Assembly (NCBI GenBank): GCA_008632985.1 | Contig: QPGO01000006.1 | Coordinates: 741,138-805,137 of the forward strand | Direction: 5' to 3' | From: Psammoneis japonica | Lineage: Eukaryota | Length of the DNA stretch: 64,000 nucleotides | Part shown: piece after piece, positions 1 through 46,619 of the stretch | Layout: each line of letters opens with the position of its first letter | How positions within the stretch are numbered: position 1 is the first letter of the stretch | The notes under the pieces: model-generated | Told to the model about the DNA's origin: nothing | The model's database searches: none | What the model saw: the letters and a program-made list of their open reading frames with translations, nothing else | Program-made: the position numbers and the translations under genes

Positions 1-227
1 CTCAAACTGGGGGAGGAGCTGTTGGTTCCGTCAGCACTTTGGGTGGCGGAAGTTCGTCACTGTCTTGAGGTTCAGGTGGCTGAATTGGTGTAGAGTCCAC
101 AGAGTCTGCAGGAGTTTGAGTTGCAGGTGGGGCTGGTGGCGTTGGCTGCTGAGTCGCAGGTGCGACTCGATCGGCAACGTCGTCGCGAGAAGTGGGTGAA
201 TCCGGCACAGCAATCGATGGAGCAGGC

Positions 228-2137
228 TCAAAATGGCCGCAAACACAATGTTGCTCTGGCCAGTTCTCGCTCTTTACGTTGACGCTCTGGAGGGGCAAGC
301 CACTCATCGTGTGAATGAACTGCTTGATCCTTCTCCAGAGGGATGCATGTCGATTGGTTGAGGCACAAGTGTTCCCAGTGATCAGGTGGATCCGTCTCCC
401 TCTTGATTGATGGCACGGTTGTGAAGAGATCGTCAAAGACCACATGATGCTGAGGAGTGACACTGCCAGTTTGTAGATTGAGGACCAAAGGAACCTCACT
501 GGAATGGATGGCACTGAGTCCCACGAACAAAGCGCGATGAGTGCGAGGTTCCCAACGCGGGAGTTTCGTTCTGGAAGCAAGGGTCGGATCAAGTGCGTGT
601 GCTGGACATCCCCATGTGTGAATGTCTCGCAGTCGATGTCTTGGCACTGTCGAGCTGGTGAAAATGTCCGCTGGGCAATGTCCCTTGGAATTTGGGGTGA
701 CATTGTAGATGTGCGTGGCACAAGAAACAGCCATGGGCCATGGGGAGCTGTCAACTCCCCCTTTCCAGTGGATTGATGCATGAAGCAACATCGCTCTTGC
801 CGTGTTGGAGATGCTTCGGATGCCCCGCTCTGCGACGCCGTTCTGATGATGGGCGTTGGTTCCACAAAAACAGAGACGTTGTCTGTGGTCTCATGCACGT
901 TGTGCAAAAGCGTTGGCCTTGAAAGCACCACTGTCGGCAAGAAATTCTTGGACGATGACACCGTGGTCCAAAGCATGTTTCTCAAACGCTTGCTTCGCTC
1001 GAATCGTCTCAACAGCGGAGAAACCAAGTTGGTGCTCGACCTGGACACATCCAGAGGCATGGTCGACAAAGATGCAACCGCCCTTGAATTGCTTGGATGT
1101 GGCTTTGCCACAGGAGTCGAAGGTTCGGCCCAAAAGGCGCGACTCAAAATGATCAACGCTGACAGCCTGACCCGGTCGAAGATGGTCAGCTCGAAGGGCC
1201 CCGTTGCGTTCAGGGACTGTCGACTTGTGAGTGGATCCAAGGGAGCGTCTGTGACCTTTAGCACACTCACATGCCTCGCATCTTGGGTGGTCACACTTCG
1301 CTGCGGACTTGAAACGGTTCGAAAGGAACGGAACTGCGCGGAGAAGTGCTTGGACGCGACCAAAGTTCAAATGGCCGAAACGGGCGTGCATTTCGATGAG
1401 AAGCTTCTGGCCTGCCGTGAGGTTTTGATTCTCCTCGTCAAGGATCTGTAGATTCACTTGTGGAGTGGCAGATGCGCCCTTGGTCATCAACGCAACAGGT
1501 GAGTGGCTTGATTGATGATGTGGCATGACCAACTTGCCTGTCCCGTCAACATGTAAACGGAAAGTGGTTTCATCGCCCTCACACTTCCCACGCACCCCCT
1601 TCTCTTCGTTGAAGAGGCATTGAGGCGACAGCAGGCGTTGACGGGCTCCAGGGACTGGTGTGCCATGGTGTTCAGTTGGATGGCAGCGCCACTCGGCGTT
1701 GTGAACACCCACGCAACCGGACCGGTGCCCTGGATGGTTAGACCGTTGGCAATCCCATTGATCTGCAAGGGTTTCTTGGGAACAGTCATGGGCCCCGTAA
1801 AATCATCTTTGTCGGGGGCAACAGCCAGCGTGGCACCAGTGTCCATGACGACCGTGAGAGCCTCGTCCAACAGGCCGATGAGTGCCTGCAGATCGGATGC
1901 AAGGAGGTCGGCTTGAGATTGTCCGGTGAGTAGTTGGATGGTGGAGGCATTGTAGACGACGGGTCTAACACTTGCTTCCTCCAACAGTTCCACAGGATCT
2001 TGAAAATGGGCAGTGTCCACGATGTGATTCGGCAGACAGAGCTCGTCAAACCGGAAGAAATCCGGGCTGAAGTCCTCAAGAGCGTCGGAAGAAATGCTTC
2101 TGGTCGTCGAGAGGTTCCAGTTCCTCACAGGTGTCAA
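228..2137 (-). pseudogene. Copia pol fragment (protease + integrase), broken over several frames
   Basis: DTG protease motif, HHCC pre-integrase motif, DDE integrase core and copia SH3-like tail KLPRWEPR...LFVG. Confidence 0.88.
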
Positions 2138-3249
2138 AGAAGGCTGATTCGTCTATCGCATCAGACCGTTCAGCCACTTCTGGGCTCTCCCAGCAGGCCT
2201 TGAGACGAGTGCTCAGTGCGTGTGATGGATGGCGGGCGACAAACTCGGTGAGCACTCGCGTGCCTTTGATCCTGTGACATTCGAACAGCGACCCCGTGTC
2301 TGACACCATCCGGTCATCTGGCTCTTCCACAATGTGGTAGACTTGAGAGCCAGCGGTCGAAAAACGGCTTGGAACGTTCAAGAATGGACACTCGGGCTGT
2401 TGACCGGCGTAAACTGCTGACCATGCCATCACTGCAACGGATGGGACCATCCAGGAGGCTGGAAACCCGTGCAAGGTTGGGAGTTTGCGCTGGCGGCGTA
2501 GAGCTCGAGGGACACATGGGATCGGAGCAAAGCAAAGATGCAGTGCCGTTTCCCAAAACATGGTGGCAAGCCAGAACATGAATGGCTTGACCCGTCCCAA
2601 GATTGATCGACGCGAAGTGGGCTCGTCTTCGACGTCCTCGTGACAATCATCCGCACCCAGGACCTCTGGATCGTAGAAATCGAAGCCACGACATGCACAC
2701 ACGGAGGTGAGTCGCAGTGTGCGTCTTCAAAGTGTACGTCGTGTTCAAGGATGAGATCTGACTTTGTGTCGTCTGACAGCACATCCGTCAAATGTGCGGG
2801 AGCATCAAAGAACTCATCTGGATGCTTGACAGAGCACAGCTTCGAGGCCGGAAACAACTCAACAGCCGGTGGTTCGTTTTCAAATGTAGAGAAAGCGTTG
2901 GAGCATTCGCAGAAGTCATCGGCGTCTTCGGGAGTGACAGTCTCAACCACGATGGGAGACACGACTGGATCCACGACTGAGGTGAGTGCAGGTGGGCTCG
3001 TTTCGTTGCAAACCACCTCAGCACTGACGACTGCATTGCTCTCCCTCTCGGCCGAAGAAGCCGGAGCAACAATGATTGCAGCAGCAACAGGGGCGGAACA
3101 GAAATCCGGGTCGGTGACGGCATCCGCAGCCGCGCACCACATTCCCGTGAAAACCAACTCGTTGGGGTCGGAGTCGTCTCCCTCTGGTTCCATGGCAGTC
3201 TGAGCTGGCGGACCCATGGGCACGCCACCATCCGGATCAGCAACAGAAG

Positions 3250-4628
3250 ACAAATTCCCGGCTGGGGTCTCCTTGGGAGGGCGCTTGTGGTGGTCTTCGG
3301 TGTGTTCCGCGGCAGAGTGCTTCTGGCAAATTCCAGGTTTGTCAGCACCCTTCGCCGTGCACGTGGCACACCATTTCCATTCCTTGCCATTCTTGTCCTT
3401 CTTCGTTTCCCCGTCAAATTTGGTGCGCCAGGCAGTGATGGGTCCCTCTTCTTCTTAAAGGGTCGGCTGCAGGCGGCGGATTGGGAGGAGGATCGTCGCG
3501 CGGCGGTTTGGCGTTGCACTTCGGGCACGTCTTCTTGGCGCACCCCTCGAGACCGCAACCAAAGCAGTGCTTCATCTTCCCAGGGTCATCCGCAGTCGAA
3601 AGATTACTCTCGGGTAGCTTGGCGACCAATGCAGGCCACTCCCCGTCCTTCACGAGTTCGTTGTGTTGCTCCTGAATCCACGCAATGATGCCGACCGGTC
3701 CGAGCGTGTTGCAATCGCCATCGGACACGATGTCAGCAGGATTCTTGAGGCGGCACTTGCGTTCCACAGCCTTGACATCGTCGAGCTTGTTGTAGACTCG
3801 CCGATTGAAGTGTTCAGAGGACGTAGAGGAGATCTTGTGGAGCAGCTTGGAGCTTGTGTTCGCCGGAAGAGCGCAGTTGGTCTGCACAATTTTCACGATG
3901 CGAAGAGCTTCGGTGGCAAAGTCCGTGCAATCCTCGCCGGGACAGTCAACCAAACTGGGGTCTTCTAGCTGCTTCTTGGCCGTCTCAACATCCGTCAGAG
4001 CACCAGCATTGCAAGCATCGAGAGCCATCATGAACAGAACAGATCCAGGGTGGTCTTGGCAGTCTTGGAGATGGTTGAACTTGGTCTCGATTTTCTCGCG
4101 AAAGGCATTGGTGATTCTTGAGTGAACGAGAAGTTGAGAGAGCCCAACATCGTCGAGCTCGATCTCGTCGCACTTGGTGTCATCGGCAGCTGCTTTCCGA
4201 ACCGTGCACTCGTTCACGAGATCGGTCACAGCAAACTCGTGAAGATGATCGAAGATGTGTTGAACCGTGTCGGCGCTGTTCTTGACATGGCAGAACGTCT
4301 GCTGACCGTGGGCTTCCACTAGATCTCGAACAGTCTTGACGAAATGGTCCTTGTCAAGTTCGTTGATGGGACCGTCCGAAATCTCAAGTCGACCGTTGAA
4401 CTTGGAAGTCATTGCGGAAGCTTGTTGATCGCGGAGAGATCGTTCTGTCGAGTCGAGAGCCTTGGGATGACGGCGCTGAGAGGCGAGTCGGCAGGTTCTG
4501 TCGTTGGATTGTTCATGCCTGTCGTTGAGTTTGGAACCACCAATGTAAACCCCGTGGGTTGGGTGAATTCCACCATGCAACGGCTTGGTTGGAGGCGGAG
4601 GAGCGGTCACTGCGGCGTTGGCGGCCAT
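3250..4628 (-). pseudogene. Copia gag with two zinc-knuckle-like motifs
   Basis: ORF 3414-4628 contains HCFGCGLEGCAKKTCP; a shifted frame near 3290-3380 reads KWCATC...KHSAAEH. Confidence 0.8.
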
Positions 4629-4702
4629 TGCGTCGGCAAACGCCTTCGCCAGAACAGCCGGATCGATGGCGCCATGACAGAGAGTGCAGCATGGGAGGTT
4701 CT

Positions 4703-4895
4703 TGTTAGAATGAAGACGAGAGAAGCGAGAGAGACTCAGCCATTTCCCGGGTTTGCTTCAAAATCAAAACCGAAAGCGTCCGTGACGATGACTCGGTCAG
4801 GAGCTCTCGTCAACGCACAATTTGGGCTCATGACCAGTCGAGATACAGTCCCACAGCTGGGCAGGATGGATGAGACCTCGAGGTTGGCAGCAACA
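4703..4895 (-). repeat. Candidate 5' LTR / leader of the copia element
   Basis: Minus strand runs TGTTG...TAACA just upstream of gag. An internal GGTCATGAGCCCA (4823-4835) resembles a copia-type PBS. The second LTR is outside the window, so boundaries are unverified. Confidence 0.4.
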
Positions 4896-5039
4896 TGAAT
4901 GGCACAGAGGCAAACAGACGCTTGTTCAAAGTCGTTGTCTAAAAATCACGACGAATGTCGTTGCTTCTGTTTGAATCGATTTTATGATGAGCCAATTGTT
5001 TCGAAGAGAAAATCTGAGTCTGGGTTGTGGTCGTGAGAT

Positions 5040-6620
5040 GCGACCAGAATGACGTTGAGTCATGACTGCCTTGGGTTGATGATGCCCACTTGCAGCATTT
5101 GTGGAGTTCAACTTGCCATTGGCGTCAGAAACCTCCAGTTCGCCAGCATGCAAAACCGGTTCTCCAGCCAAGATGCTGGCATGGTTGGCAGTGAAAGTGT
5201 TCCTGGCAACACACAGCTTCCTGTTGATGCCCCAAACAAATGTCCAGGGTCCACTGGGGATGGGACCATCTGTGAAGTACAATCGCATGGTGTTTCCGTT
5301 GTCCGAAACGTCGAATTTTACCGCCACCTTTTCTCTGTCGTTGACGTTGAACATGTGAAAACGGAGCCGGTTCATCATGGTGTGCGAGCAATCTTCATGC
5401 TCAAAGTGCTTCCCTTTCCCGCAGTCAAGCCATTGGAAGAAGGGTTCTCCCAAAAATGGTGTTTCAACAAGCAACCAATGTCGGAAGTGCTTCTTCAAAC
5501 ATCTGTTGCGCCTTGTCTTGGGGTCTTCTAGCTCTAAAACACCAGGCAAACCAATTCCTTGCGCGACAGACAAGGCCATGTCACTCTTGTTGCGTGCCTT
5601 TTCTGCACAACGGCTCCCCTTTGATGAAACGATTCCTCGAGCTTCGTCTTGGTGCGCTTCCTGATCCACCAACTCTCTCCCAATTCGTCGTTTGACATTT
5701 TTGCAAGAGACTTGTTCGTTTCCTTAACCTGCAGCATGTTTTGAACATGAACACTGCACTTGTCCTTTGTGTGATCATTTCGCTTTTGTGTGAAGCCAAC
5801 TGAAACTTTCCGCCCTTTTTCGTCTAGAGCAATTGTGCTCAGGATTGGTCCACCTGTCTCAGTGCAATTCAACTCAAGCTTGACTTTCTTTGCAGGTGTG
5901 TGTGACTGTTTGTGCTCCACAGGCCAGGAAAAGAGCCACCGCCTTCACTCAAGAAAATGCGATGCCGTGGCCAACCACTGTTTCAGTGGCAGACGCACTC
6001 GTCTGTCTTGTCATCAGTCGAACACTTGTTGCTTTTTGCATCACGCATCAAAGAAAGCAACACAAGATTGTGGTTCTTTGTCTTGATGTTTTCCTTGATT
6101 GGCCAATTCCCATGGTTTGGGACCCCCACCATCCTTGCATCTTTCGCGCATGCTGCCAAAGTGATCATGACATCATCACGAAGTAGACAGCCTCTGCAGG
6201 AATCCCTCCTTTCATGAGTGGGTGCAAACAAAGATGACTTTTGGTCAGTTCCATTGCTTTCCTTGTTGTTCGGGGTTCGTGAACGGCACACGGTGACAAG
6301 CAAACCGTTCGAACAGGCTTCGCTAAAACCACTCTGCTCTTGGCAACTAGATTTCGTTTTGACATCCGTTTTGCCTTTCTCCTTGAACAGGTTCAGATTC
6401 AACGCAAAATTTCCTTCGCCAAGGACTGCGCATTGCAGCCGATTGATGTGCAACATAGAGAGATGCACAGAATCAGCCTTTTCTTGATGCGTTCACCGCT
6501 GGCAGAGCCAACATCGAGAACTCGAGATGTCGTAGATAATTTTGACATCTGCAATGCTTTTGTCCAGTGGTCTCAACTTTGTTTTTGCTCAGTGCTGGTG
6601 AACAAGGTTGATGTGGTCAA
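5040..6620 (-). pseudogene. Hypermutated, frameshifted copy of the IQM-like gene at 9926-11644
   Basis: Collinear with about 10050-11600 (e.g. EPFFQWLDCGKGKHFEH vs EPFFQWLDYGKGKHFEH; ASGHHQPK vs ASGHYRPK), with frameshifts and systematic TA->TG/CA changes. Confidence 0.93.
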
Positions 6621-7399
6621 ACAAATTGAGGTGGGTTCTCGGAATCATCGATGGGGGCAAGCCCTGTCTGCGGTGCATGTGCCAATGTTGAATGTTGCGA
6701 CTCTGGATGGAAGATCGCAAAGCAGCTTGAAAATTTCAATTTCACTCGGGTTCGGGGACACACGGCACATTGTGAACACAGAAATCTTGTGGATGAATGT
6801 GACATTGCCACAACAGATTTTTCGACAAGACGAATTGAAGCACCTCTCTGGCAATGTGGCGAATTTTGCACTTGCAACTTGGCTTGGTTTGCAGGTCTTC
6901 TGTTTGCTTTTTGTCTCTTGCACCCGGTCAACACAGCAACTGCAGTTGATGGCAATGGGAACGCACTTGCAAGCCACACAGTGAGCTTTGAGAATCAGGA
7001 AGACCAAGCACGTGTGCCAGTTGGCAAGCTGCAAAAAATTCCAGCACAGAAGCCAAAAAGTCAAGTCATGACACTCAAAGAAGTGTTGTCATTCAGGGCT
7101 GGGAAGTTGAGAGGAATCTAACAGCAAAGGCTGGGAAGTCAACAGGAGTGCAAAAAAAAAGGGTGAGAAGACAACAGGAGTCTAAAGGTGCAGCTCACAT
7201 TGGCAGATCGCAGCAAACAAGCCAGCAGGACCAATGCAAAGAAATGGTCTCTGGAGGGCCTTGCTGTCAAAGAAGCTGTTGAGGGTCTGCTGCTGAAAAA
7301 GAGCATGGCAAGGTTGCATTGGGGATCAGTGGGACAGAGTGTGAAGCTGTTGGCAAACTGTGAAACTCTGGCACAAGTCCCAGGGAAAGATGGGGGCAA

Positions 7400-8345
7400 G
7401 GACACAGTTGAGTGTGGCTGGAAGCATGAAAGATTTGAAGGAGTGGGTTCATGATGCCGTTGCCAAATCAGGGCAACAGGCAGATAGATGGTCACACAGA
7501 AACCACAAGAAAGATTGGTGAGCATGTTGGAAGAGTGCTTGAGCCAAAGGTGAAGGTGCGCTGGCATCTCTGAGGCAGGAGAGCATGCCAAAAGAGCCGG
7601 TGCATCCATCGGGAGTCACCATGTTGGAGAAGGACAAGGCAATCTGGGGCAAGAAATGTGGTCACTGTGTGAAACAGAGTGCAATCTGCAAGATGATCCA
7701 TGCAGAAGGTGAAGGCATTCAATGCAATCATGGGAAAATGTGCAAAGGCCACTTGCCACAAACTTGAAGGAGTGATGGACTTTCCAAGAGTCCCAAAGGA
7801 GTTGGACATGGTGGCAGCACTGCTGGATGTTTTCAAGTTGATCTTGTTCAGGACCAATGAGAAGATGAACCTGCATGTCCAGGCCATCAAGGCTTGGAGG
7901 CAGTTGACACTCATGCATCAAGATGAAGGAAAGTTGCTTCAAGATCATTGCAGTCAATTTGTGAGTTGTGAGCATGGTTGAAGCAATGAAAAAGTCCCAT
8001 CTCAGGACCATCCCAGAAGAAATTGCCACGAAAGAAGATGGGTTCAGCAGCAAGGATGCTGATGACACCCAGAACAAAGGAGGAACAAGTCATTGACCAC
8101 GGTGCTGGTGGAGGGCACCAAGGAACACAAGCACCTCTTAAAAGACCTGCATTGGCAGCCTGCACTGGGAGTTGACACACTCACCCCAATTCAGCCAAGA
8201 ATCTGCTGCAGGTGTTGGACACCTGCAGGACCATCAAAAAACCCAGGGCACAAGCTTTGCACAGAACAAGAAGACACAGACCAAATGCTGGAAATGCAAC
8301 AAGGTTGGACATCAGGGGAGAGATTGTCCTGAGACAATGACCATC
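7400..8345 (+). mobile_element. Decayed LTR-retrotransposon gag fragment
   Basis: CCHC knuckle KCWKCNKVGHQGRDCPE at about 8282-8332, upstream gag-like segment AWRQLTLMHQDEGKLLQDH; almost no TA or CG. Confidence 0.7.
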
Positions 8346-9329
8346 TGTCAGCCGAGTTTGATGATGCAGACCATGGGAGTCAGTGGAGCAGTCAATGTGG
8401 TGTTGTGGGCATGGTTTCCAAGTGCCATCCTCCCATGCTTGATGCACATGATGGCTTGTGTGAAGGAGTGGCAGGTTGGAACATTAGAGTTGGCAGAGGC
8501 AGTTTTTGCTTGACAGACAATGTTGCCATGTGAGACACACTGACAACTGTGGACAATGCGGTGATTTTGCATTTGCAACTCAGATTGAATTGTGGGCCTT
8601 GTGTTCACTTTTAGCTTCTGCACCCGGCTGACATGGTGACAGTGGTTGACAGCATTGGGGTTTTGTTTGCAAGCTGCACGGTGAGCCCAGGGTCAGTGAG
8701 ACTGAACGCGTGCTGCTGGCTGCTGGCAAGCTGTGAAATTCCAACAGCTGTGGTGCCTGCACAAAATGGCCAGCAACATTGGCTGCTCTCACTCCTTGTG
8801 CACCACCCCAGCATTTGGCTGCTGCAAGCCTGAGAGCCAGCCAGCTGGCAATTTCTTGCAGCCTGTGGGTGGTCGAGAGTGAGCGAGTTGTTCAAAGCAT
8901 GCTGAGCACCAGCTTCTCTCTCACAATTGGCTGCAACAAGCTTGGCCTCAGCTTCTTGGTGAGTGACATGTGTGGAGCCCCCCACAGCTCATCCCATGCC
9001 ATGACCTGCACACCCAGCTGAAAGGCAGTGTGCCAGCACTTGACAATTTCCCCTGCAACACCAGCTTTGGCTGCTGCCAATGCTGGAGCACAGCTGCCAG
9101 CATGTTCCCCATTGTTGCTGGTGGATCTTTTGCACCAGATGGCGGATGAACAAGAGCGCCAGCATGGTGCTCAAGGTAGACTCCAGCAGCACCCGGACAG
9201 CCACTGGGATTCTTTCTTGAAACAGCCTCTTCTTGTCTTGTTTCTCTCTCCTGATGCTTTGAGGCACTTTGCCGTGTGCACCTGCCTCAAATTGGAGTGA
9301 CAAAGTTGATCCTCCACACATGTTTCCCA

Positions 9330-9520
9330 AACACAGTGGGTGGCAGCCCACACACAGTGGCAGAACAAGCTTTTTGAAAACAGGGTTTGGGAAAAAGTTC
9401 TCTTGGCACACAAAGTGGCTTTTGTTCATGTGTCTGGACTGCTTGACCTCATCTTCTTGAACAGGGTGAGATTCAGTGCAGCAACTTCACCAAGGACTGC
9501 ACATTGAAGCCTGATCATTG
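9330..9520 (-). pseudogene. Third, more diverged fragment of the IQM-like gene N-terminal region
   Basis: RLQCAVLGEVAALNLTLFKK matches RLQCAVLGEGNFALNLNLFKEK at about 6375-6445; shared DNA ttgaacagg...caaggactgc. Confidence 0.7.
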
Positions 9521-9925
9521 ACACACCAATCCATGATCCCGGGGCCACAAAACAAGAGAAACAAACAAACATGGGGGAGGTCAAGTTGGCAAATTGAGCC
9601 AGTGATCCTGTCCAGGGCTCTTGTGGACAATGTTCAATCAAGTTGATAACGTGCGTCAGACATCTCAAACAAAGAACACAAAGTTTCATTGCATTGCATC
9701 CTTGTGATCATCCCAAAGCGTCCCTCCACTTGACCCAAATGATGCAGTCATAACAGTGGCAGCCCAATCAAGTTTACCTGGTGTTCTTTTCAGCACAAAG
9801 CCATTTTCTGGAAGGCATGTTTGGAACAGAGATGAAAATAAAATGAGCATGTGTGCAAGATGTGTGAATGTTTTGCGGGGATGCTTTGAGCCATATTATA
9901 ATTGTCGGTGCTAAAGTTTGGATTC

Positions 9926-11644
9926 TTATGTAAAAATTGTCTGCCAAATTTCTTCTGGAAATATTGTGCAGTCATGGTCCCAAAAAATGGCTTGTCTCGT
10001 TATGCCATAATTATCGACGAGAAACTTATAGAACGACTTGACGTGTTCCATCTTGGGTCGATAATGCCCGCTTGCAGCATTCGTGGAATTCAACTTACCA
10101 TTGGCATCAGACACCTGCAGTTCCCCAGCATGCAAAACCGGTTCTCCAGCCAAGATACTGGCATGGTTGACAGTGGAGATATCTCTGGCAATGTACAGCT
10201 TCCTATTGATACCCCAAACAAATATCCAGGGTCCACTGGGGACGGGGCCGTCTGTGAAGTACAATCGAACCGTATTTCCGTTGTCCGAAACGTTGAATTT
10301 CACCATTGCCTTTTCCCTATCGACGGTATTGAAGACCTTAAAATGATGGCTGTTCAACATGGAATGCGAGCACTCCGTATGTTCAAAGTGCTTCCCTTTC
10401 CCGTAGTCAAGCCATTGGAAGAAGGGTTCTCCCGAAAATGGTGTCTCGTCAAGTAACCAATGTCGGAAGTACAGCTTCAAACATTTCGGAAGCCTTGCGA
10501 TCTTGGGGTCTTCTAGCTCTAAAACACCGGGCACACCGAGTCCTTGCTCGACAGACAAGGCGATGTCGCTCTTGTTGCGTGCACTTTCCACGTACCAGTT
10601 CCTCCTTTGACGAAACTCTTCTTCGAGCTTCTTCTTGGTGCGCTTCCTGATCCACCAATCCTCTCCCAATTCATCGCTTGACATTTTTGCAAGAGAATCG
10701 TTCTCTTGCTCATTATGCAGCATGTTTCGAATCAAAACACTGAAATTATCGTGTGTGTAATCGTGTAGCTCTTGTGTAAAGCTAACGGGAACGTTGCGCC
10801 CTTTTTCGTCAAGGGCAATCGCTCTCAGTACCGGCCTACCAGTCTCGGTGCAATTCAATATAAGCTTGACCTTCCTTAGAGATGGCTGCGACGTGCTTGT
10901 ATTCAGCATCCTGGGAAACGAGCCACCGCCGCCATCGCTCAAGAAAATGCGATGCCGTGGCCAACCACTGTTTCGATGGTAGACGTATTCGTGTATCTTG
11001 TCATCAGCCGAGTCGTTGCTGCTTTCTTTGTCACGTGTCAAAGACAGCAATACAAGATTGACGTTCTTGCTCTTGAATCTTTCCTTGACTATCCACTCTC
11101 CATGGTTTGGGACCCGCACTGCCGTTGCACCTGTTGCACATTCTGTCGAAGTGATCACTACATCGTCGCGAAGTAGAAAACCTTGACATGAGCCACTATT
11201 GCTCCCAAGAGTGGGCTCAAGACGAGATGATATCTTGTCAATATGATGACTTGGTGAACGATATACGTTGACAAGTAAACCTTTCGAACAGCCTTGGTTA
11301 ATAGATTTCGTCTTGTTTTCGATTGGAGCTTTCCTCGTGTACTGGACCAGATTATGCTTTCGGCCAGAACCATAGAGGCGTATTTGACTTTCTGTGATGC
11401 AAGATAAAATGGCATCATCAAGGATTGTGTACTGCAGCCCCATCATTGTGAAACACAGGGAGAAACACAGTATCAGCCTTCGCTTGGTGTGTTCATGGCT
11501 AGCAGAGCCGCAAACGAGAACCCGAGGTGTTTTTGACATTTGTGCAAGTGGTTTCGACTCAGTTCTGTTACTTCCCAGAACTGTGCATTCACGAGGACCA
11601 GTCTTGTTTGTTTCTTGTGTAACGGTGTTGAAGAAAGGTTCCAA
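9926..11644 (-). CDS. Protein with a C-terminal IQM-family-like domain and a degenerate trypsin-like N-terminal motif
   Basis: 572-aa ORF. EDPK...PFFQWLDYGKGK...WIFV...LYIA...HASILAG...AGEL...ASGHYRP resembles the conserved plant IQM C-terminal domain. True start uncertain. Confidence 0.8.
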   Translation of the reverse strand: MEPFFNTVTQETNKTGPRECTVLGSNRTESKPLAQMSKTPRVLVCGSASHEHTKRRLILCFSLCFTMMGLQYTILDDAILSCITESQIRLYGSGRKHNLVQYTRKAPIENKTKSINQGCSKGLLVNVYRSPSHHIDKISSRLEPTLGSNSGSCQGFLLRDDVVITSTECATGATAVRVPNHGEWIVKERFKSKNVNLVLLSLTRDKESSNDSADDKIHEYVYHRNSGWPRHRIFLSDGGGGSFPRMLNTSTSQPSLRKVKLILNCTETGRPVLRAIALDEKGRNVPVSFTQELHDYTHDNFSVLIRNMLHNEQENDSLAKMSSDELGEDWWIRKRTKKKLEEEFRQRRNWYVESARNKSDIALSVEQGLGVPGVLELEDPKIARLPKCLKLYFRHWLLDETPFSGEPFFQWLDYGKGKHFEHTECSHSMLNSHHFKVFNTVDREKAMVKFNVSDNGNTVRLYFTDGPVPSGPWIFVWGINRKLYIARDISTVNHASILAGEPVLHAGELQVSDANGKLNSTNAASGHYRPKMEHVKSFYKFLVDNYGITRQAIFWDHDCTIFPEEIWQTIFT

Positions 11645-12336
11645 TCACGACACCTCCTTGTAATTCTGTTGTTCTTATAGTTAGTTGGGAACGAAAGAAT
11701 CTTGCTTTGAGGAATGAGTGAAGCGACCCCGGGAGAGACGAGCTGAGTTGTCGAAACGATTTGTCTGCGCCAAAAAAGTACACAAACAACGATAGTGAAT
11801 CCATGTGATCATGTGCTATTGTATCAATTATTTATATGTTCACATATATTACATACATGGAAGAGGCATTAGGAGGTGAGTTTACATATGTCGAACAAAG
11901 AAATTCCTGAATTTCTTCACAAACTATGATAGCGAATCCAAAACTATGAACTTTTTTCTTTTCCTTATATATCAGCACTTAAAAAACAAAATTATCCTAC
12001 TTCCTTGTGCAGTATGATATTACAACCAAGTGCGGGACTCGGCAGTAAGTACCGTTCATTTTATTGAGTAATTAATAAAATGAATACTTTAATATTATCA
12101 TCAGTTTCTGTGGGAGTATTCCCGATCCCGCCGAGACGATCGATCTGAAATTAATCTCTGCGTCGTCCGTGCCGTTCGTATAACAGTACAGAGTTCTAAC
12201 ACCCCCCGAGTGCAATCGGCACTCTCTACTGTATGGTTGTGGTTTGCTCTTACCATCTGTTCATCCTGTGGAATGTTCTAAGTTAGTCTTATAGAGAGAT
12301 TTTGAGATTGATTCTTTTTTATTTGGCGCCGAAACC

Positions 12337-16196: not shown

Positions 16197-18194
16197 TTAG
16201 GGGACACGCTCATCTGGTTCTTGGAGAAAGGGGTCATACAAGAAGACAAAAGGAGCGTCGAGATAGTTTCGCTTGTCGTAAAGCATGGTTTCGATTACGG
16301 CCGGATCTGTCGTTCCCCAGTAGTTGTTCTGGACATTCATGGGATCAGTGTAGTCTAGTCCATATTCACGTGCTTTAATTGCGATTCCATCGGTGTTGAG
16401 AAACGAATTTCCCGTGACTGTCACATTGCCGACGGGCTCATTCCAAAGCATCAGCCAGTAAGAGTCTCGCTGATTCTCGAACCGATTCCATCTAATATAT
16501 ACATTGTGCTCGTAATGAAGAATAGAGAAGCCTCGGCTATCCACAAACGTATTATACTCCATGTAAAAATCACTTTCTCGGTAGGAAACATAGGATTCTC
16601 CTCCCATATTCGTAACTAGGGAATGCCGCAGATGAAACGAGCCGCCATTGTGGTAGCCTCCGTCATAAAAAACTTGGTTGCCATTTTGAACGTGGCACAA
16701 GTCCAAATCCACAAGAGCAGTCGCAGGAGAATTTCTTACGGAAAAGAAATCGACGTATTTCCCAAGACCGTCAAACACAACTGGATTCGTCTCGGTGCCA
16801 TGCGCCAGTAAAGTGCCATGTACCAAAAACATGCCACCAAACCCTTCGTCGTTCCCATTTGGCACCACAACTACCCCGGAATCAATCAAAAGAGTGACCC
16901 CTTCTGGTACTTGTACTGTCGACAGCAACGAATAAGGACTTCCGGTTACGTCCCAGCGTGCATCGACCGCTATAACGCCACCCTCGACAACTGTTCCTGT
17001 AGCTGGAGTCGGTGCAATTGTGGGTGGAGTTGTTGGTAGCGGCGTGCTTGTGGTAGGCGGTGAAGTCGGCGGATCTGTGATGGGTTCTACTTCAGACGAG
17101 AGAGTTGTGGGCTGTGCAGTCGAAGGAGTGCTTGTAGTCGCCGGCGGAGTCGGTGGGCCAGTGATGGGTTCGACTTCAGAGGAGAAAGTAGTGGGTTGTG
17201 GTGTCGAAGGAGATCCGGATTGCGGCGCTGGGCTGAGGGTTGTGGCTGGCGGTGTCGTTGGTGCGGCAGTAGTAGGTTCTGTAGTTGTCCCGGGTGAAGC
17301 TTCATTCGCTGCTGAACTGGAAGTGCCATTGCTAGTTGGAATCGCAAAAAGCAACGCAACTGCAATGCCCACGATGACTAGCAACAAACCCGCTCCAATC
17401 AAGAACCAACGACAAATCTTTCCACGTTTTTGTGTTCTCAGAACATTTTCGATTTCTTGACGAAGGTGCTGCTGTTCCTCTTCCGGATCGACAACATGAG
17501 CAAGTTGTGCCGCATTGTCCTCTACAACATGCGCAGCAATAGGGAGTTGCGAATCGGTCTCCATCCCGCGTTCCATGGCAGAATCGGAGCGAGAGACTGA
17601 TGCTGCTCCTGCTGGTTCTGTCGCATCTCTACTCTGAATACCGGGAACGGCTTCGGCTCCCGGCGTGACGGAGCTGCCAGGTAACTGCTGGTCCAAGACA
17701 TTGACGATTTCATCCGGAGGAGGCGGTTGCTCCAAGGGGCTGAAATCAAACGCATCAGGCGAAGCTTCGGGCCGCGAGAATTCTTCTCTCGGCTCTTCAA
17801 CTTTCCTGGTCTTGCGATGAAGATGCTCCGGCCTTGGTTTGATTTCTTTTTTGTTACTTCTCCTTCTTTGATATTGAGTGCGAGCGCTTCGATGCTCGCG
17901 GTGTTTGTGAGGACGGTGTTTTTCGTGCGAGTCTCTGTCATTTGTGAGCCCCATTCCTAACGTTGTCATTCTTCTGCTGGTTCGTCCTAGTTGTTCTGGA
18001 AAGGTTTCAGGAACCTTGCAATCTACCTTCGACCTGCCATGGCTCTTGTGACTACGCTTGACACGGTTGGGCCTCCCGGTGGTGTCGTGCGTCGTGTCTG
18101 TTCTCCTGCTCTGCTCATTGCTTGCCAGGCTGGTGCTTCGTGTCGCATGAGCACCATGTTTCAAGTACGATTCCCTGTCATCTAATAGCTCCAT
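16197..18194 (-). CDS. Type II membrane protein: cytoplasmic N-terminus, TM helix, Pro/Thr stalk, right-handed beta-helix ectodomain
   Basis: TM WFLIGAGLLLVIVGIAVALLFAI, PT repeats, GSPY...VPEGVTLLIDSGV...GTLLAHGTETNPVVF and NNYWGTTD motifs. Start taken at MELLDD; the ORF is open to 18596. Confidence 0.82.
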   Translation of the reverse strand: MELLDDRESYLKHGAHATRSTSLASNEQSRRTDTTHDTTGRPNRVKRSHKSHGRSKVDCKVPETFPEQLGRTSRRMTTLGMGLTNDRDSHEKHRPHKHREHRSARTQYQRRRSNKKEIKPRPEHLHRKTRKVEEPREEFSRPEASPDAFDFSPLEQPPPPDEIVNVLDQQLPGSSVTPGAEAVPGIQSRDATEPAGAASVSRSDSAMERGMETDSQLPIAAHVVEDNAAQLAHVVDPEEEQQHLRQEIENVLRTQKRGKICRWFLIGAGLLLVIVGIAVALLFAIPTSNGTSSSAANEASPGTTTEPTTAAPTTPPATTLSPAPQSGSPSTPQPTTFSSEVEPITGPPTPPATTSTPSTAQPTTLSSEVEPITDPPTSPPTTSTPLPTTPPTIAPTPATGTVVEGGVIAVDARWDVTGSPYSLLSTVQVPEGVTLLIDSGVVVVPNGNDEGFGGMFLVHGTLLAHGTETNPVVFDGLGKYVDFFSVRNSPATALVDLDLCHVQNGNQVFYDGGYHNGGSFHLRHSLVTNMGGESYVSYRESDFYMEYNTFVDSRGFSILHYEHNVYIRWNRFENQRDSYWLMLWNEPVGNVTVTGNSFLNTDGIAIKAREYGLDYTDPMNVQNNYWGTTDPAVIETMLYDKRNYLDAPFVFLYDPFLQEPDERVP

Positions 18195-18552
18195 TGTTGA
18201 CGAAGTTAGGGGTTGTGGGTACTGTATTATCGCGATAGATGACAATGTGATGACCGCGGGTGCAACAGGGTTCGCATAAATCTCCTCCCGGGTCCGCGGG
18301 GGTGTTCGCGTTCTGAAATTCATTGCGATCGATCGCATCGCTCGCGATCGACACCTTCCGGTCTGTAAGTCTGTAAGTTGTGCGTTAGTGGTGCCGGGTG
18401 CCGGGAAGAAGTGAAGGCAGATACGGTGTAACTGAGAAGCTACCCGACCAAAATAGAAACGTAGAACGACCATTGCTCTAAGTTTCGCCGCCAGTTCATA
18501 TTGGTATTGAGTCGTTTGGTGGTCTTTCCGTGTATTGCCTAACAAGTTGGTT

Positions 18553-19770
18553 CTACAGTGTTGCATGCCCCGACACGACTTGCTGTGATTTGGCAATCTG
18601 CTCCAAGAACCAATCAGGGTTCATAATGGGTTCAATGGTGGGAACACGAACCAAATGGGAACCCTGCATACTTAATATTTCTTTGCCAGACAAGGTCTTG
18701 TACCCCGGAGCTTCATCATGTTGAATCCTTACACTTGCAATACTGTCGTGAGCAAGATTATGAATATTGTCGTCCAAGAGCAAATGGTGACGACTCGAGT
18801 CGCGGGGAACCCAAACCGGTTTGCCAGCCCACGGTTCGCATTCATTCTGACTCCAAAAGCTATAGTCATCTCGAATGCCACAAATCGTTTTCGATTCCAT
18901 CAACTCGACAATTTCAGCGTCACCGCTGGCCACCAATGTCCGCTCGTGGTCGTTTTCATCTGTACTGGTAGTCCACAATTGGTACAGCATGTCGTCGGTA
19001 CTGCTCGAATCACTTGCGTCGTTACTATTTGTACGTTTCCACCGTCCACAATAGAGACTGTCCTTTTCCAGAATTAAATTTGGATTGTGAAAGTTCGGGT
19101 ATTGTGGATGCTTTCCTTGAGCAAACGCCGAAATGGCTTGTGCAACATCCGGTAAATCGGAACCAAAGGTCCGAAACACAATTGTAAACGACTGTTCCTG
19201 TCGAGTCAATTCATCAAGAGTATGAAAGATGGCCGGAATCATGTGTGACAAGACATTGTTTTTTGGTGGGCCCTTCAATTCATGTTCTGCCAAGGTCAAG
19301 CGCCGTTCCATTTCCTCATAGAGGGGTTTGTAAATGGCACCGTCGAAATGAGTGAATTGCTTGGCACGTTTCTTGAAGGACGTTCGATAGTACGGACAAC
19401 ATCCCGGAGGCCAATGCCATCCAGTGTAGAGCGGTGGCAGCTGCTGCTCTTGTCCAATCGGCGTCCCGTCCCACCAGTGAGTCGGCACAAATTTCTTCAA
19501 ATTGGCAACGTCCGTATTCTCGTGACACTGAACAAAGGCCGACTTGGCTAGAATCTTGTTGAGACAATCTTCGCGTGTATCACCACCGGCTTCATCTCCA
19601 ACAAGAATTGTTTCATTTACATCAAAGTGAATCACCAAATGCCTGTTTGATTTTTTGAAACTACTTGTAGTCGTCTTTTCCTCCGAAAGTGAGGAAACAA
19701 TTTGGGGCAACCTCATGGTTTTGTCGGAAACGCTGTTGCTGTCGGGTCTAGGTAGTTCTTTTGGTGTCAT
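18553..19770 (-). CDS. Uncharacterised protein with a HAD-like N-terminal motif
   Basis: 405-aa single-exon ORF; LVIHFDVNETIL, IVFRTFGSDL, LLLDDNI. Confidence 0.8.
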   Translation of the reverse strand: MTPKELPRPDSNSVSDKTMRLPQIVSSLSEEKTTTSSFKKSNRHLVIHFDVNETILVGDEAGGDTREDCLNKILAKSAFVQCHENTDVANLKKFVPTHWWDGTPIGQEQQLPPLYTGWHWPPGCCPYYRTSFKKRAKQFTHFDGAIYKPLYEEMERRLTLAEHELKGPPKNNVLSHMIPAIFHTLDELTRQEQSFTIVFRTFGSDLPDVAQAISAFAQGKHPQYPNFHNPNLILEKDSLYCGRWKRTNSNDASDSSSTDDMLYQLWTTSTDENDHERTLVASGDAEIVELMESKTICGIRDDYSFWSQNECEPWAGKPVWVPRDSSRHHLLLDDNIHNLAHDSIASVRIQHDEAPGYKTLSGKEILSMQGSHLVRVPTIEPIMNPDWFLEQIAKSQQVVSGHATL

Positions 19771-26121: not shown

Positions 26122-27540
26122 CTACGTTAGACACTCGGCTACATTGATTTCAAACACCCGAACCGTCTTGTCATCACTGGCCGTAACAGCCACAATGGTT
26201 CCACCATTTTGATCCGGATTCAAGAAATCCACAGCCATATCATTAATCAGATCCGAGTGGCCCGTTTGCGTGTCCAACACTTGTCCGTTGCGAGCGTCCC
26301 ACAGTTTCAGAGTACCATTCGAGTGCGCCGTCAAAACGAGCGGCATGGTTGGATGCCATGCCAAGCGTGTAATGCCAGCAATATTACTATTGTTGTTGCT
26401 CCTGTCTTGACTGTCTTGAGCCGTTTCTTGACGACACGCTTGACGACATTGTCCTCCGTCATGCGTCAAGTCCCAAACCTTCAACACGCCGTCGACTCCA
26501 CCCGTGGCACACCAATTGGGATTGGACGGGGAGAATCCAACCGCTTCGACACTCATTGGTAATTCCATCATTTCATCGTCATGATTATTTAATTGTGTCG
26601 GTACTTCATAATGCCGCAACGACGCCACGACTTTATTCGTGGCGACATGACAGACATGCGCCATGCCGTCTTCGGCACCCACCACTACCAATTGTCCATC
26701 CGTACCACCACCGACCGCCATGCAAGTCAATCCAGCCGGTTCGTCGTTATTGAATTGAAATACGTGTCGCGACACTCCCGTTTTCGGTGCCCACACACGC
26801 AACGTCCCGTCCGAGCTGGCACTCAGTGCCCACTTGCCATTGCTGGAAAAACATCCCGCCGTGACGCCACTTTGGTGTCCAACAAAGACTTGGAGACACT
26901 TTTTTTGTGGCAAATGATACATCCATACCGTTCCGTCGGCTACCGAACCCGCCAACAAGACGGTACCACCCTTGGGATGAAAGCACAGCCATTCGACATC
27001 GCTCGGTCCTTCCAAATCAAAGAGTTTCGTGCCGTCCATGGCATTGTAAATACAAATGGCACCATCGTAGGCACCTACGGCTGCCAATGCTTGTCCGTTG
27101 GGAGCAAGGTACTTGGTATTGAGCGCCACGCATGCGACAGTGTCCGTGTGGGCGTGTTCCAATCGCATACTAGTGTTGTTGTCGCCGGGAACCTTGTGCA
27201 AATACGCCGTGTCGTCACCACCTCCCGACACAATTGTGAGAGTATTATTATCCTCCGCATTGACACTGGCAGCCACGGCATAGACTTGTCCTGTATGCGA
27301 TGATAGAATTGCCTTGGACATTTCGATAATTTCCGTTTCTTGCTGCTCGACTACAACCTCATCATCATCATCGTCGTTTTCTTCTTGCATGGGAACGTTT
27401 TCATCATCCACTTGCACTTCGACGGCGTCGTTGGGATCCAAAAAGACGGGACTCGTGTCATCGTCGTCATCATCTTGTGGATGTGGAATAGCATCGTTGC
27501 TTTCCATCGCCATTATGGTATCGTCTTGGGGATCGCTCAT
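26122..27540 (-). CDS. AAMP: WD40 protein, AAMP/Sqt1-like ribosome assembly factor
   Basis: Acidic N-terminus, SGGGDDTAYL, EVEW-type DVEWLCFHPKG, DGTVWMY, multiple GH...WD repeats. Confidence 0.85.
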   Translation of the reverse strand: MSDPQDDTIMAMESNDAIPHPQDDDDDDTSPVFLDPNDAVEVQVDDENVPMQEENDDDDDEVVVEQQETEIIEMSKAILSSHTGQVYAVAASVNAEDNNTLTIVSGGGDDTAYLHKVPGDNNTSMRLEHAHTDTVACVALNTKYLAPNGQALAAVGAYDGAICIYNAMDGTKLFDLEGPSDVEWLCFHPKGGTVLLAGSVADGTVWMYHLPQKKCLQVFVGHQSGVTAGCFSSNGKWALSASSDGTLRVWAPKTGVSRHVFQFNNDEPAGLTCMAVGGGTDGQLVVVGAEDGMAHVCHVATNKVVASLRHYEVPTQLNNHDDEMMELPMSVEAVGFSPSNPNWCATGGVDGVLKVWDLTHDGGQCRQACRQETAQDSQDRSNNNSNIAGITRLAWHPTMPLVLTAHSNGTLKLWDARNGQVLDTQTGHSDLINDMAVDFLNPDQNGGTIVAVTASDDKTVRVFEINVAECLT

Positions 27541-31000: not shown

Positions 31001-31989
31001 GGTTGTTGTGTATTAAGCGATTCGTAATGATGATTATGAGAGAAAGCGTTCGACCACAACAAGCATCACAAAGAGTGTTCTGACTACGCGAAACGTCGTG
31101 TTGATCTTGCAGTGCTTCATCACTCAACACGTACGTGTTGTCGCGGGGTGATACCAATTACGTAGGCGTACGTATTGTTTCTACAGGAATCCTACGCGGC
31201 TTGCAGTGTGAGTCACAGGATCAACTCAACATATCATATTGTACGAGGATATGTCGTATGTACGATCCAACGAGCAAATCTTTTGGTATTCGACGTCAGC
31301 AAGATCCGACTGAATAATTGCTCAAGACATCGTGGTGTGAATGACTCACAATTTGACCAACATTGGAAAATCCATCATCCGAGGTGAACCGAGTGAGACA
31401 ATTCACAGCTACGTTATCGACGATATGAAAATCTTTTCTGACTATAGTCCATCTTGGCTTCTCGCACTGCACTCGCTCCTTGAGTTGAACTTTTTGTGAG
31501 TTCATCAGCCACCTCTTGTGTGCAGTGCTGTTGCATCCCAGCAAAGACCAAAGCGGCTGGCAACAACACAGTCTGTCCAATTGAGTTACATTGCGGGAAG
31601 GATGTGCTCAATTGAGTGTTGCCTCTCCAGGCCTCATTGGAAATTGGTCATTCAAATCTGGGCCATCGTCAGCGAATTTGCACGTTGGCTGTGGACCCGC
31701 CTTGTGCACCAGTTTGGTTGGAGATGACCTTTGCTTTAGATGGACAAAACAGCTCTTAAATGGCATGAAAGGCATCTTTAGTGCGAGGCTTCGTCGAGAG
31801 CCAAAGCAGGAAGCTCTTGTGCAGCAGTTGACTTGCCATGACCGAGCACCCATGACCCGCTCGCATTGCAGGAACCGATGACGTGTCAAAAAATCAAAAA
31901 AAAAAATCGACAACGTCCGACAAAAGCCTCTGCCCTTTCCTCTTCTTCCTTGGCTGCCCTGGTTAAATCGGCCACTCTCCCCGGTCTGG

Positions 31990-33172
31990 CCCGTCGTCTC
32001 TGCCATGAACATCAGCAACAAGCAGTGACCTCCATCCTTGCCAACTCATCTTACGACGTGCAATCTTCACTCCCTTCATTGCTGTCTCCGCTTGTGCAAG
32101 CCTCCCTCTTCATTCCTTCTCTCGTCGCTTTCCAAGCTCCCGCCTTTCTTCGGACGCCTGCGCTGTCACCGCCCTTCGCAAGCTTCGTCTCCCCATCCTT
32201 CCTCCGCCCCTTGTCAACACTCCCTGTCCCTGTGGCCATGCCATTCTGGATGCCTACGGTGATCATGCCTTTTCTTGCCGCCGTGCTCACAAGTCCAAGC
32301 TTTCCAATGGTCTCCGTGACACTGTTTTCATCCTAGCCCAAACTTTGGGTCCTCTTGCAGAGTTCTGTCAATCCCCAATGACGTTCATCTTGAACCCACC
32401 AACCTACTCCCCACCCGCCCGCTTCTCCGTCCCGCCGATGTTGGCATTTCAATCCCCCCTCCCGCCTCCCTTTCCGCTCCCTCCCGCCATCACTGCATTG
32501 CAGTGGACGTCACCGTCCCTCAAGCTTCCTCTCACCCTCCTCCAGGTCTGCCTGCCCCCTCTTCTCCTATCTTAACTGAGGCACACCACTCAAGCGCGAG
32601 ATTGAAGTTTCTTGGCCCTCTACTTCCTCTGCCGATGGATCCCTTGTTGTTTCTTCGCTTGACAACAATGGCATCTTTCTGCTCCCCTTCACTGTAGATC
32701 ACCTTGGTGGTCTCGGCTACTTTGCCCACCGCTTGCTCTTTGGTTCTACATCCCCTCTGTTTGCTCTCAGCCCAAGCCACCCTGGTCCTCTTCCTCTGAC
32801 CTTCGTCACTCCGATGCCTCCTACTCCGCCTTCCTCTACGCTTTGTCATCTCCGTCTGCAATCCTTCCCTCTGCTGACTCCGCATGGCGTCGCCTGTCCG
32901 CCGATCGCTTTGGAAACACCTACCGTACAGCCACCCCATCCCAGTGGGCCACCCAAACTCTTGGCTACAACGTTGTTCTTCACCTTTCTACGCACATCCT
33001 CCGATTCACCTCCTCTCTCCCTGCCCCCCTCCTCACCCATACCTTCCACAAAACGCCCTTCGTCTTGCGTCCATCGACCTTTTTACTCTACCGTCTCTAC
33101 AGCTACCTCCGTGCCTCCCTCTGCTGTTGCCTTCCGCTCTACATAGGCTTCCTTAATCTTCTATTTTAAAAA
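31990..33172 (+). mobile_element. 3' end of an RLE-type (CRE-like) non-LTR retrotransposon, 5'-truncated
   Basis: A frame not in the ORF track reads LRKLRLP...CPCGHAILDAYGDHAFSC...RPADVGI...VDVTVP...VDHLGGLG (CCHC finger + PD-(D/E)xK nuclease); very pyrimidine-rich sense strand. Confidence 0.78.
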
Positions 33173-37833: not shown

Positions 37834-38295
37834 AGCAAGTCCGCTTGATTTCGTAGTGTATACCGGGGTAAATGGCTGGATTGCCATTGGGGGGATTTAA
37901 TAGGTGTTTAGCGGCTTTCAAGCATTGTACAGCCGCAAGCGAGATGTGCTTTCTAACCAGCAGTATGCAAGAGAACGTTCGAGAGTCGCTGCTGCTGGAT
38001 ATATGATTGCCTAATCTACCGTTGTTGAAGGTGTGAAACCGTTTCGGCATGGAGATTCTACTCGTCTAAGAAGAATCTTCTAGATCTGCACACAAGTTAA
38101 GCTAGAGCAGAAAATCTAGAAAGAGGTGATGTGATTGTTTTGCCGGCATGTAAGACTTAGTGAGAGCCTGTACCAGAATGCTCACAAGCAGGCCTGAGCT
38201 CGCGTCGTCTATGGCAGCGTGGTTTGCTGCATCAGAACTCCAACCATTGTATGAAGACTGACCAAAAAATTTGTGAATTATTTTCTCATTATCCC

Positions 38296-40978: not shown

Positions 40979-41054
40979 AAAGACGAGTCACGAACACCAC
41001 ATTGTTCAACACGACGACAGACCAAAAAACTGGTGCAATTTTGCTGTTATCCCT

Positions 41055-46132: not shown

Positions 46133-46619
46133 AATTTTTCAAATTTTGCAGTCCACGAACGTCCCTACTGCGTTTTAGTACCAATTCCGACGTAGAATTT
46201 TGGAAAGCATGCGTGACAAATTTTGAAAAAAAAAAACGCGTGTGTGTGACGAGTGACGATTGGAGATTATCGGATATATGAATTGTAAGTCTTGTGCTGC
46301 AAAAAGTATGAAAGTAGTATCGTAGCGAGTGTTTTGTTGTGACAATTTCAGTGGTGGCGGAGTGGTTGCAATTACACACGCACCGTGGGCGGCGGAAAAA
46401 GAGGCGGCGGCGTCGTCGGTCCACCTGCCTCTGCTGGTTGTGCGCCGTTGATTTGATTTTGGTGGGCTTGCAGCAGCACGTGTCTGGGCGGCGTCCGTTT
46501 CGAAAGTGCGGCGCCCGCGCGTACCGTACTGTACTGTAGGTAAGGTTCATCTTGTTGTATTTCTACATACTGTACGAAAGAACCACCATGATTCTACGGC
46601 GGCAGCTTGAGATCATTGC

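Follow-up and report, generated by a model that had tools for sequence, protein, structure and literature searches.

Locus and features

This analysis concerns a stretch of 64,000 bases from the diatom Psammoneis japonica (GenBank assembly GCA_008632985.1, contig QPGO01000006.1, positions 741,138 to 805,137 of the forward strand), called the window below. It holds an intact gene, here called gene A, and at a distance of 3.3 kb a decayed copy of it, called copy B. Copy B lies inside a block of transposon-rich DNA from which the dinucleotide TA has nearly vanished, and most of its own TA sites have become TG or CA. The features around this pair are the following, where some have no strand assigned.

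1-5069, minus strand: Copia-like long terminal repeat (LTR) retrotransposon, high copy, with weak Pfam matches, running off the left edge of the window
5070-6583, minus strand: copy B, a single-copy pseudogene of gene A
6584-9700, no strand: rest of the first TA-depleted block, with CpG also depleted from ~7000 (observed/expected 0.09-0.31)
~6986-8724: low-copy element with a zf-CCHC (gag) knuckle at 8142-8510 on the plus strand, almost free of TA and CpG
9701-9925, no strand: right edge of the first block, with TA normal again between ~9650 and 9890
9926-11539, minus strand: gene A, an intact open reading frame (ORF) of 537 codons, from a small unnamed family

Several features support gene A being a host-type gene: no domain typical of transposons is present, the family is small (19 homologues, almost all metagenomic), and the N-terminal half is weakly trypsin-like (PDB profile E = 8.5e-5 to cathepsin G). 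A Pfam scan of gene A gave no match or weak matches only. Its fold model, which is of mid confidence (predicted local distance difference test 68), has a weak trypsin-like match (Foldseek E about 4e-4, Atlas score 0.83). The C-terminal domain is well conserved (FSGEPFF..WLDYG..SGHYRP) and matched no fold family. TA in gene A is at 0.51-0.63 of expectation, which is level with other genes in the window.

Copy number was read from the contigs of one public run (called X1), placed on 4000-12000. It was the sole run listed for the region, with no RNA run among the listings, and contigs of this kind do not reveal rare variants. Word depth is 2847-6433 over 4000-5067, and 57-93 from 5068 onward. Given this drop, the Copia-like element ends within a few bases of 5070, the same point where the homology between A and B stops. 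The lower depth also means that copy B is single copy, and 6670-7203 and 8539-9873 are likewise single copy by this measure. The Copia-like element itself stands at ~50-100 times the single-copy level, with a peak over the presumed LTR (4801-5067). Many X1 contigs match the TA-depleted Copia-like copy at 95% or more, so this is a large family.

A tblastn search of the window with gene A finds gene A and copy B only. Judged by its divergence, copy B is an old paralogue, with 9% transversions from A, and a fresh duplicate is excluded. A third gene fragment of 60 bases, called C (9452-9511), resembles 6378-6440 in the 5' part of copy B and lies in the same depleted block.

The initial annotation had described copy B as the copy of a host-type gene lying between transposons, hit and pseudogenised by a process that can reach non-transposon DNA. 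The surroundings bear this out, with the Copia-like retrotransposon on the left and the low-copy gag zinc-knuckle element on the right. So does copy number, as copy B is single copy and has been reached nevertheless. That this process pseudogenised copy B is not borne out, its disabling lesions being of other kinds. Copy B is missing its last 42 codons, as its homology to A ends at 5070 beside the high-copy element; it is also frameshifted by 1-base deletions, and carries one premature TGA, which came from CGA and is thus of the CpG type. No new stop codon can arise from a change of TA to TG or CA, since TAA gives TGA or CAA and TAG gives TGG or CAG. TA transitions are therefore not the source of the stop in copy B. 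What they do add is missense, including the loss of four conserved tyrosines (Tyr). Differences between A and B outside TA and CpG are nearly even over the three codon positions (72, 78 and 99), from which it follows that copy B has long been unconstrained.

Loss of TA sites in copy B

A local alignment of gene A (10052-11564) with copy B (5070-6583) spans 1552 columns, with 1152 matches, 323 mismatches (186 transitions and 137 transversions) and 77 gap columns, for 78.1% identity. It contains 51 TA sites of gene A. In copy B, 5 of these are still TA, 18 are TG, 15 are CA and 13 are something else. This means that 46 of 51 TA sites were lost, 33 of the 46 to a single TG or CA, and that the loss is near saturation. 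All of copy B contains just 9 TA sites.

Taken together, the remaining 15 dinucleotides keep 899 of 1405 sites (64%), so TA sites do change more than others (Fisher p = 3e-15). Conservation of the non-TA dinucleotides ranges from 29/73 for CG to 98/129 for TT. The change is also asymmetric. TA in A stands opposite TG or CA in B at 33 sites, and the reverse is seen at 3 (binomial p = 2e-7). This TA-specific loss in copy B is confirmed.

The initial annotation had worked from 10058-10530, where it saw about 16 of 19 TA sites changed, all by transition, as 11 TG, 4 CA and 1 CG. The totals of 19 and 16 stand. The recount comes to 10 TG, 4 CA, 1 CG and 1 GA, and the change at 10339, in a poorly aligned stretch, is a transversion. 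It had further stated that many CpGs are retained, which is right only in part: 29 out of 73 are kept, yet CpG is the second most eroded dinucleotide in copy B, with 28 sites going to TG or CA versus 11 in reverse (p = 0.009). As a rough estimate, a TA site in copy B shows an excess loss ~4 times as high as a CpG site does. Transitions at other sites run evenly in both directions (62 AT-to-GC versus 63 GC-to-AT), and a general drift towards GC is thereby excluded.

Read on the sense strand of copy B, the 33 TA-derived sites consist of 15 TG and 18 CA. Both strands have thus been affected equally.

The window also supplies a control:

38235-40100 and 40992-42871, minus strand: tandem paralogous FG-GAP genes, both intact and TA-normal

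These two genes have a divergence similar to that of A and B, at 82.1% identity with 185 transitions and 145 transversions. They keep 33/63 and 33/65 of their TA sites, depending on which gene is taken as the reference, and their TA to TG/CA differences number 12 in one direction and 17 in the other. Against 5/51 in the A/B pair, a retention of 33/63 is highly different (Fisher p = 1e-6). Expressed as survival, copy B versus the control pair is at 0.10 versus 0.52 for TA, and at 0.40 versus 0.60 for CpG. Just downstream of the FG-GAP pair, 43036-43253 holds two tandem units of 108-110 bases that are 97% identical.

Haplotype variants

Differences between haplotypes were taken from the X1 contigs. 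Among the 40 of 46 variant positions listed, 38 fall in 4609-9117 and 2 in 9874-12000. Four adjacent TG-to-CA doubles make up 8 of these positions, and with 6 single TA/TG or TA/CA differences there are 14 positions of the TA type. The others are 15 CpG/TpG-CpA differences, 5 other transitions and 6 transversions.

Two of the doubles, 5291-5292 and 5913-5914, are in the well-aligned part of copy B, and gene A has TA at both. An ancestral TA has thus turned into TG on one haplotype and into CA on the other. Such TG and CA alleles stem from independent hits on both strands after the alleles split, so the TA process is recent, and probably still active.

Strand-specific miscalls could also produce TG/CA doubles at about half depth, if a long-read base-caller misreads modified bases at heterochromatic TA sites. 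It is very improbable that the signal is such an artefact. Just four doubles are found among the variants listed, in 8 kb with hundreds of lost TA sites. In an alternative X1 contig over 5273-5326, the TG/CA double is phased together with variants of the CpG type, which favours a real allele over a miscall. The same signature is found in independent metagenome contigs and in database proteins, described below. Finally, similar changes in the alga Bigelowiella natans arose de novo in Illumina-sequenced lines, according to a preprint (Mettrop et al., bioRxiv 10.64898/2026.01.13.699255).

The X1 contigs also show structural variation in this block. One contig (depth 40) joins 6985 to 8725 with 33 other letters in between. 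Since it skips this stretch, the element at 6986-8724 is a presence/absence variant. Several further internal skips occur among X1 contigs within 7118-8409.

Direction of change

To polarise the change, the proteins of A and B were compared with nine homologues. The 33 TA-to-TG/CA sites divide into 15 synonymous and 18 non-synonymous ones. At the latter, 114 outgroup residues could be compared, and these match A 41 times and B 2 times. Taken per site, A is favoured at 9 of the 18 and B at 2, and the other 7 do not discriminate. Four Tyr codons of gene A are Tyr in 9/9, 9/9, 8/9 and 7/9 of the homologues, and copy B has Cys or His there.

The direction from TA to TG/CA in copy B, which is also what the initial annotation had proposed, is shown by these outgroup proteins and by the haplotype variants of copy B. 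In fungal repeat-induced point mutation (RIP), TA is made from CA and TG, and a process of this kind could in principle have given gene A its TA sites and left copy B in the ancestral state. This is the least credible of the explanations weighed here. The Tyr codons of gene A are common to all or nearly all of the nine outgroups, and its TA level is ordinary. It is the unrelated sequence neighbouring copy B that has the state of copy B, and the TG/CA doubles between haplotypes point to a TA ancestor.

TA-depleted blocks

Copy B is not alone. Sharp-edged TA-depleted blocks are found at 1-~9700, 46600-48660, 52750-55610, 56003-57500 and from 63000 to the end, with a partial one at 31450-32560. 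Those beyond the first block are:

46600-48660, no strand: unknown-type element block, sharp-edged, depleted of both TA and CpG
52750-55610, plus strand: Helitron-like element with an open frame of 829 codons (53084-55570), TA observed/expected 0.03-0.23
56003-57500, no strand: block depleted of TA and CpG, with 2 TA in 1.5 kb
63000-64000, no strand: TA-depleted block, running off the right edge

In bins of 500 bases, 37 of 128 have TA below 0.3. They form 15 runs, where shuffling gives a mean of 53.6 and a minimum of 37. Over the same bins, TA correlates with TG/CA at r = -0.71. At block edges, TA density shifts within about 100-250 bases, and the right edge of the first block is only tens of bases past the stop codon of gene A. 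G+C is 0.51 in the blocks versus 0.48 outside.

TA observed/expected is 0.10 in the blocks, 0.48 in long ORFs outside them and 0.64 in other, intergenic DNA outside them. Because of this difference, the depletion is a derived state and not the neutral equilibrium of the genome. It could otherwise be thought that nothing is targeted, that TA decays in any unconstrained DNA, and that copy B as a pseudogene simply displays this decay. The genes in the window are already at 0.48 of expected TA, and the near-even differences of copy B over codon positions show how little constrained it is. We consider this explanation very unlikely, as TA is most abundant in the intergenic DNA beyond the blocks, and as the edges are so sharp.

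The Copia-like element has TA at 0.04-0.25 of expectation and CpG near normal. It consists of a gag with zinc knuckle (3417-4757), integrase remnants (231-1802, with weak Pfam matches to gag_pre-integrs and SH3_retrovirus) and a probable 5' LTR (~4770-5069). Over 1-7000 as a whole, TA is at 0.04-0.25 and CpG at 0.59-1.17. Strong depletion of CpG is limited to 7000-9700, 46.7-48.5 kb and 56-57.5 kb. Since CpG is near normal in the TA-poor 1-7000, its decay is a second, separable process.

Not all TA sites suffer equally. With strands pooled, the ratio of blocks to normal DNA is 0.05 for TAT, 0.12 for TAC, 0.23 for TAG and 0.27 for TAA. TAA and TAG together occur 129 times in 16.5 kb of blocks, versus 1169 times in 36.7 kb of normal DNA. 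The loss of TA erases stop codons in all six frames, which is why the blocks have many overlapping ORFs that are almost free of Tyr.

These contexts bear on editing of RNA by an ADAR-type enzyme, followed by reverse transcription into DNA. The left neighbour of copy B is after all a retrotransposon. ADAR favours a G on the 3' side, and here TAG is the least affected context but for TAA. A single edited RNA would give A-to-G on one strand, where the sense strand of copy B has its near-even mix of TG and CA. The signature also extends to single-copy DNA and to the Helitron, an element that transposes as DNA. ADAR does prefer a U before the edited A, as is also stated in the B. natans preprint (10.64898/2026.01.13.699255). 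Even with that preference, this route is less probable still than untargeted decay.

Copy B might instead have been recognised as a duplicate of gene A, and not by its location, much as in RIP. It is a paralogue of gene A only 3.3 kb off, and fragment C is in the same block. In addition, an island of 390 bases at 55613-56002, between the Helitron block and 56003-57500, is TA-normal (~25 TA, A+T-rich). This island is either escaped host DNA or a younger insertion, and normal host DNA between depleted blocks speaks against simple spreading. Set against such a homology trigger, gene A is undepleted even at synonymous sites and in its 3' flank, and the FG-GAP pair of similar divergence is untouched. 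The stretches 6584-7200 and 8539-9700 are single copy, with no detectable second copy in the window, and are depleted too. A homology trigger is therefore unlikely, though it is the strongest of the alternatives.

Several searches of the blocks came back empty. Self-BLAST of the window returned the A/B pair, the FG-GAP pair and short matches only, so no relationship among the depleted blocks is detectable. No convincing LTRs or terminal inverted repeats were seen at the block edges. A primer-binding-site motif to mark the LTR end has 2 one-mismatch matches in the window, both elsewhere, where 1.24 are expected by chance. Pfam gave no or weak matches for the gag ORF and most block ORFs.

The partial block at 31450-32560 has 9 TA in 1.1 kb and ORFs without a Pfam match; GC skew is -0.42 over 32001-33000. 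Two long intact ORFs, 49177-52365 (minus strand, 1062 codons) and 16197-18566 (minus strand, 789 codons), are normal in TA and Tyr and have no Pfam family. The window as a whole is nuclear DNA. A conserved WD40 ORF of the SQT1/AAMP type (26122-27540) is 44-56% identical to its best named relatives, all of them diatoms (Skeletonema, Cylindrotheca, Mayamaea, Pseudo-nitzschia, Nitzschia, Seminavis and Thalassiosira). Other ORFs in the window carry DUF6824, FG-GAP_2, bZIP and Helitron domains.

Helitron and metagenomic relatives

The Helitron-like ORF at 53084-55570 has 0.24% Tyr, versus a mean of 2.7% in 20 homologues. There are 8 columns where at least 60% of the homologues have Tyr. The Helitron of the window has Tyr in none of them: five are Cys, and His, Phe and Lys account for one each. 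Other conserved aromatic columns are retained, with 7/7 for Trp and 14/21 for Phe.

Two of its homologues, P0141 (866 residues) and P0154 (1355 residues), contain zero Tyr. Among the best 150 representatives from a library of 1.84 billion proteins, 2 are free of Tyr and 6 are below 1%, with a median of 3.3%.

TA was also compared over 32 metagenome loci that encode Helitron relatives. In locus L007, TA falls to 0.02 within the match and to 0.03 in the flanks, with 13 TA in 7761 bases. Its open frame of 640 residues has 1 Tyr, 28 Cys and 27 His. In locus L031 TA stands at 0.13, and the depletion ends sharply where a normal flank begins. Values for the remaining 30 are 0.32-0.75. The best DNA relatives found for L007 are 65-75% identical, which is too distant for a site-by-site spectrum. 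By their composition, P0141, P0154 and L007 are hypermutated Helitrons that were reported as genes. Long ORFs without any Tyr could act as a cheap screen for the TA process.

Proposed mechanism

The explanation we favour, at a probability of roughly 0.8, is a local, TpA-specific transition process on silenced, transposon-rich blocks of the diatom genome, which hit copy B and spared gene A. Each TA would turn into TG or CA with about equal chance, being one chemical change on either strand. Copy B, inside the transposon block, would have been driven to near saturation, and gene A, which starts tens of bases past the edge, would have been spared.

What sets the blocks apart is probably a silenced chromatin state rather than copy number, because repeated and unique DNA within them are equally depleted. 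The process acts on DNA, since a DNA transposon and single-copy DNA are affected and both strands are used. It is strictly specific to TA, and it stops at block edges even where a functional gene is only tens of bases away.

Transfer RNA (tRNA) adenosine deaminases of the TadA/ADAT2 type are the source of adenine base editors. The A34 that ADAT/TadA enzymes naturally act on lies directly behind U33, which would agree with a preference for T before A. A DNA adenine deaminase with such a 5' T preference is the simplest candidate for the agent here, turning adenine into hypoxanthine, which is read as G. The same kind of agent was proposed for B. natans, and we give it an even chance of being the right one. 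An alternative chemistry would take T to C through a modified thymine. Its footprint would be identical, as TA reads the same on both strands.

A number of observations count against the process as proposed, or weaken the case for it. The outgroups are distant (26-39% identity, the closest 37-39%), which limits polarisation to the amino-acid level. All haplotype evidence comes from contigs of the one run X1, which is possibly the window's own source. The TA depletion of the Copia-like family could predate its spread. The island at 55613-56002 means that spreading into neighbouring DNA is not universal. Strand-coordinated runs of TG or CA along copy B are not significant (15 runs versus 17.4 expected, P = 0.25), which gives no hint of tracking. 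Among the scanned ORFs of the window, no deaminase domain was seen.

Comparison with known systems

RIP in ascomycete fungi is the classic comparison. It changes CpA and TpG into TpA, creates stop codons, lowers G+C and mutates both copies of a duplicate. RIP blocks are sharply bounded, and RIP can leak into adjoining single-copy DNA. The diatom blocks share the dinucleotide-specific transition hypermutation and the sharp bounds. The direction is opposite, as TA is destroyed, no stops are created and G+C is raised. RIP also mutates both duplicates; here gene A is TA-normal and the FG-GAP pair is untouched. With TA lost rather than gained and only one duplicate hit, fungal RIP was rejected.

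Deamination of 5-methylcytosine at CpG also yields TG and CA, and it has been at work in the same blocks, as the CpG values of 7000-9700 attest. It acts on another dinucleotide however, and 1-7000 lost its TA with CpG near normal. As the sole cause, CpG methylation decay was rejected: it is present as a second process and is unable to remove TA.

Animal retroelements are edited by deaminases, with ADAR acting on RNA and APOBEC on complementary DNA (cDNA), in each case on one strand. The likeness is that of base deamination directed against mobile DNA. The difference is that ADAR and APOBEC work on one strand of RNA or cDNA, whereas both strands of chromosomal DNA are equally affected in the diatom.

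Diatom transposons are methylated, as described in the excerpted text of Hoguin et al. 2023 (PMC9998398). That text discusses an RID-like DNMT4 in diatoms, and within it a TpA signature is not mentioned.

The closest system is that of B. natans. What follows on it is drawn from the preprint (10.64898/2026.01.13.699255). Mutation accumulation revealed a local TpA hypermutation of integrated viral DNA. Changes are almost exclusively from TpA to TpG or CpA, in discrete foreign or mobile regions. The mutation rate is raised by orders of magnitude there and is episodic between lines. Reverse transcriptase and DDE transposase domains are over-represented in its TpA-poor coding sequences. As the responsible enzyme the authors put forward an ADAT2-like DNA adenine deaminase, a hypothesis that they do not demonstrate.

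The diatom window shares with B. natans the near-exclusive change of TpA to TpG/CpA, the discrete regions of mobile origin, and a loss of TpA coupled to a gain of CpA and TpG. The hosts differ, as B. natans is a chlorarachniophyte (Rhizaria). The targets also differ from the viral DNA hit there: in the diatom they are an LTR retrotransposon, a Helitron, and a host pseudogene of single copy that was trapped in a block. Depletion goes further: the diatom blocks stand at 0.10, near saturation, versus 0.45 for the B. natans giant-virus region. Another difference is that the diatom blocks are partly CpG-decayed.

Diatoms are not mentioned in the abstract, Results or Discussion of the preprint (10.64898/2026.01.13.699255), and no report of TpA hypermutation in diatoms was found in the one literature collection searched. 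The diatom case is an addition to the B. natans type, in that it brings a new lineage, new kinds of target, allelic evidence, and ORFs that are free of both stops and Tyr.

Significance

To our knowledge, before the 2026 preprint no eukaryote was known to mutate its resident DNA specifically at TpA. The same footprint is now found in a diatom, from a distant and ecologically dominant lineage, with a natural control in the form of an intact and a mutated gene copy 3.3 kb apart.

There are practical consequences. The loss of TAA and TAG stops and of Tyr codons yields long false ORFs, which are a trap for annotation. Public databases already list two Tyr-free 'proteins', one of 866 and one of 1355 residues. 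If the agent does turn out to be a natural adenine deaminase of double-stranded DNA, it would be of interest for the design of base editors.

For the organism itself, TpA hypermutation might be a defence, shared across Rhizaria and diatoms, aimed at silenced chromatin domains rather than at repeats in themselves and, given that two alleles took separate hits at one TA, still active in living populations; it would silence without stop codons and leave behind long Tyr-free frames that gene finders take for proteins. We hold this wider view tentatively, and give it slightly less than even odds. The shared process is possibly old within the group of stramenopiles, alveolates and Rhizaria (SAR). 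It may be widespread and may have a conserved enzyme, which a comparison between genomes that show the footprint and genomes that lack it could bring to light. And because single-copy host DNA among transposons is reached, the process can shape the decay of gene families.

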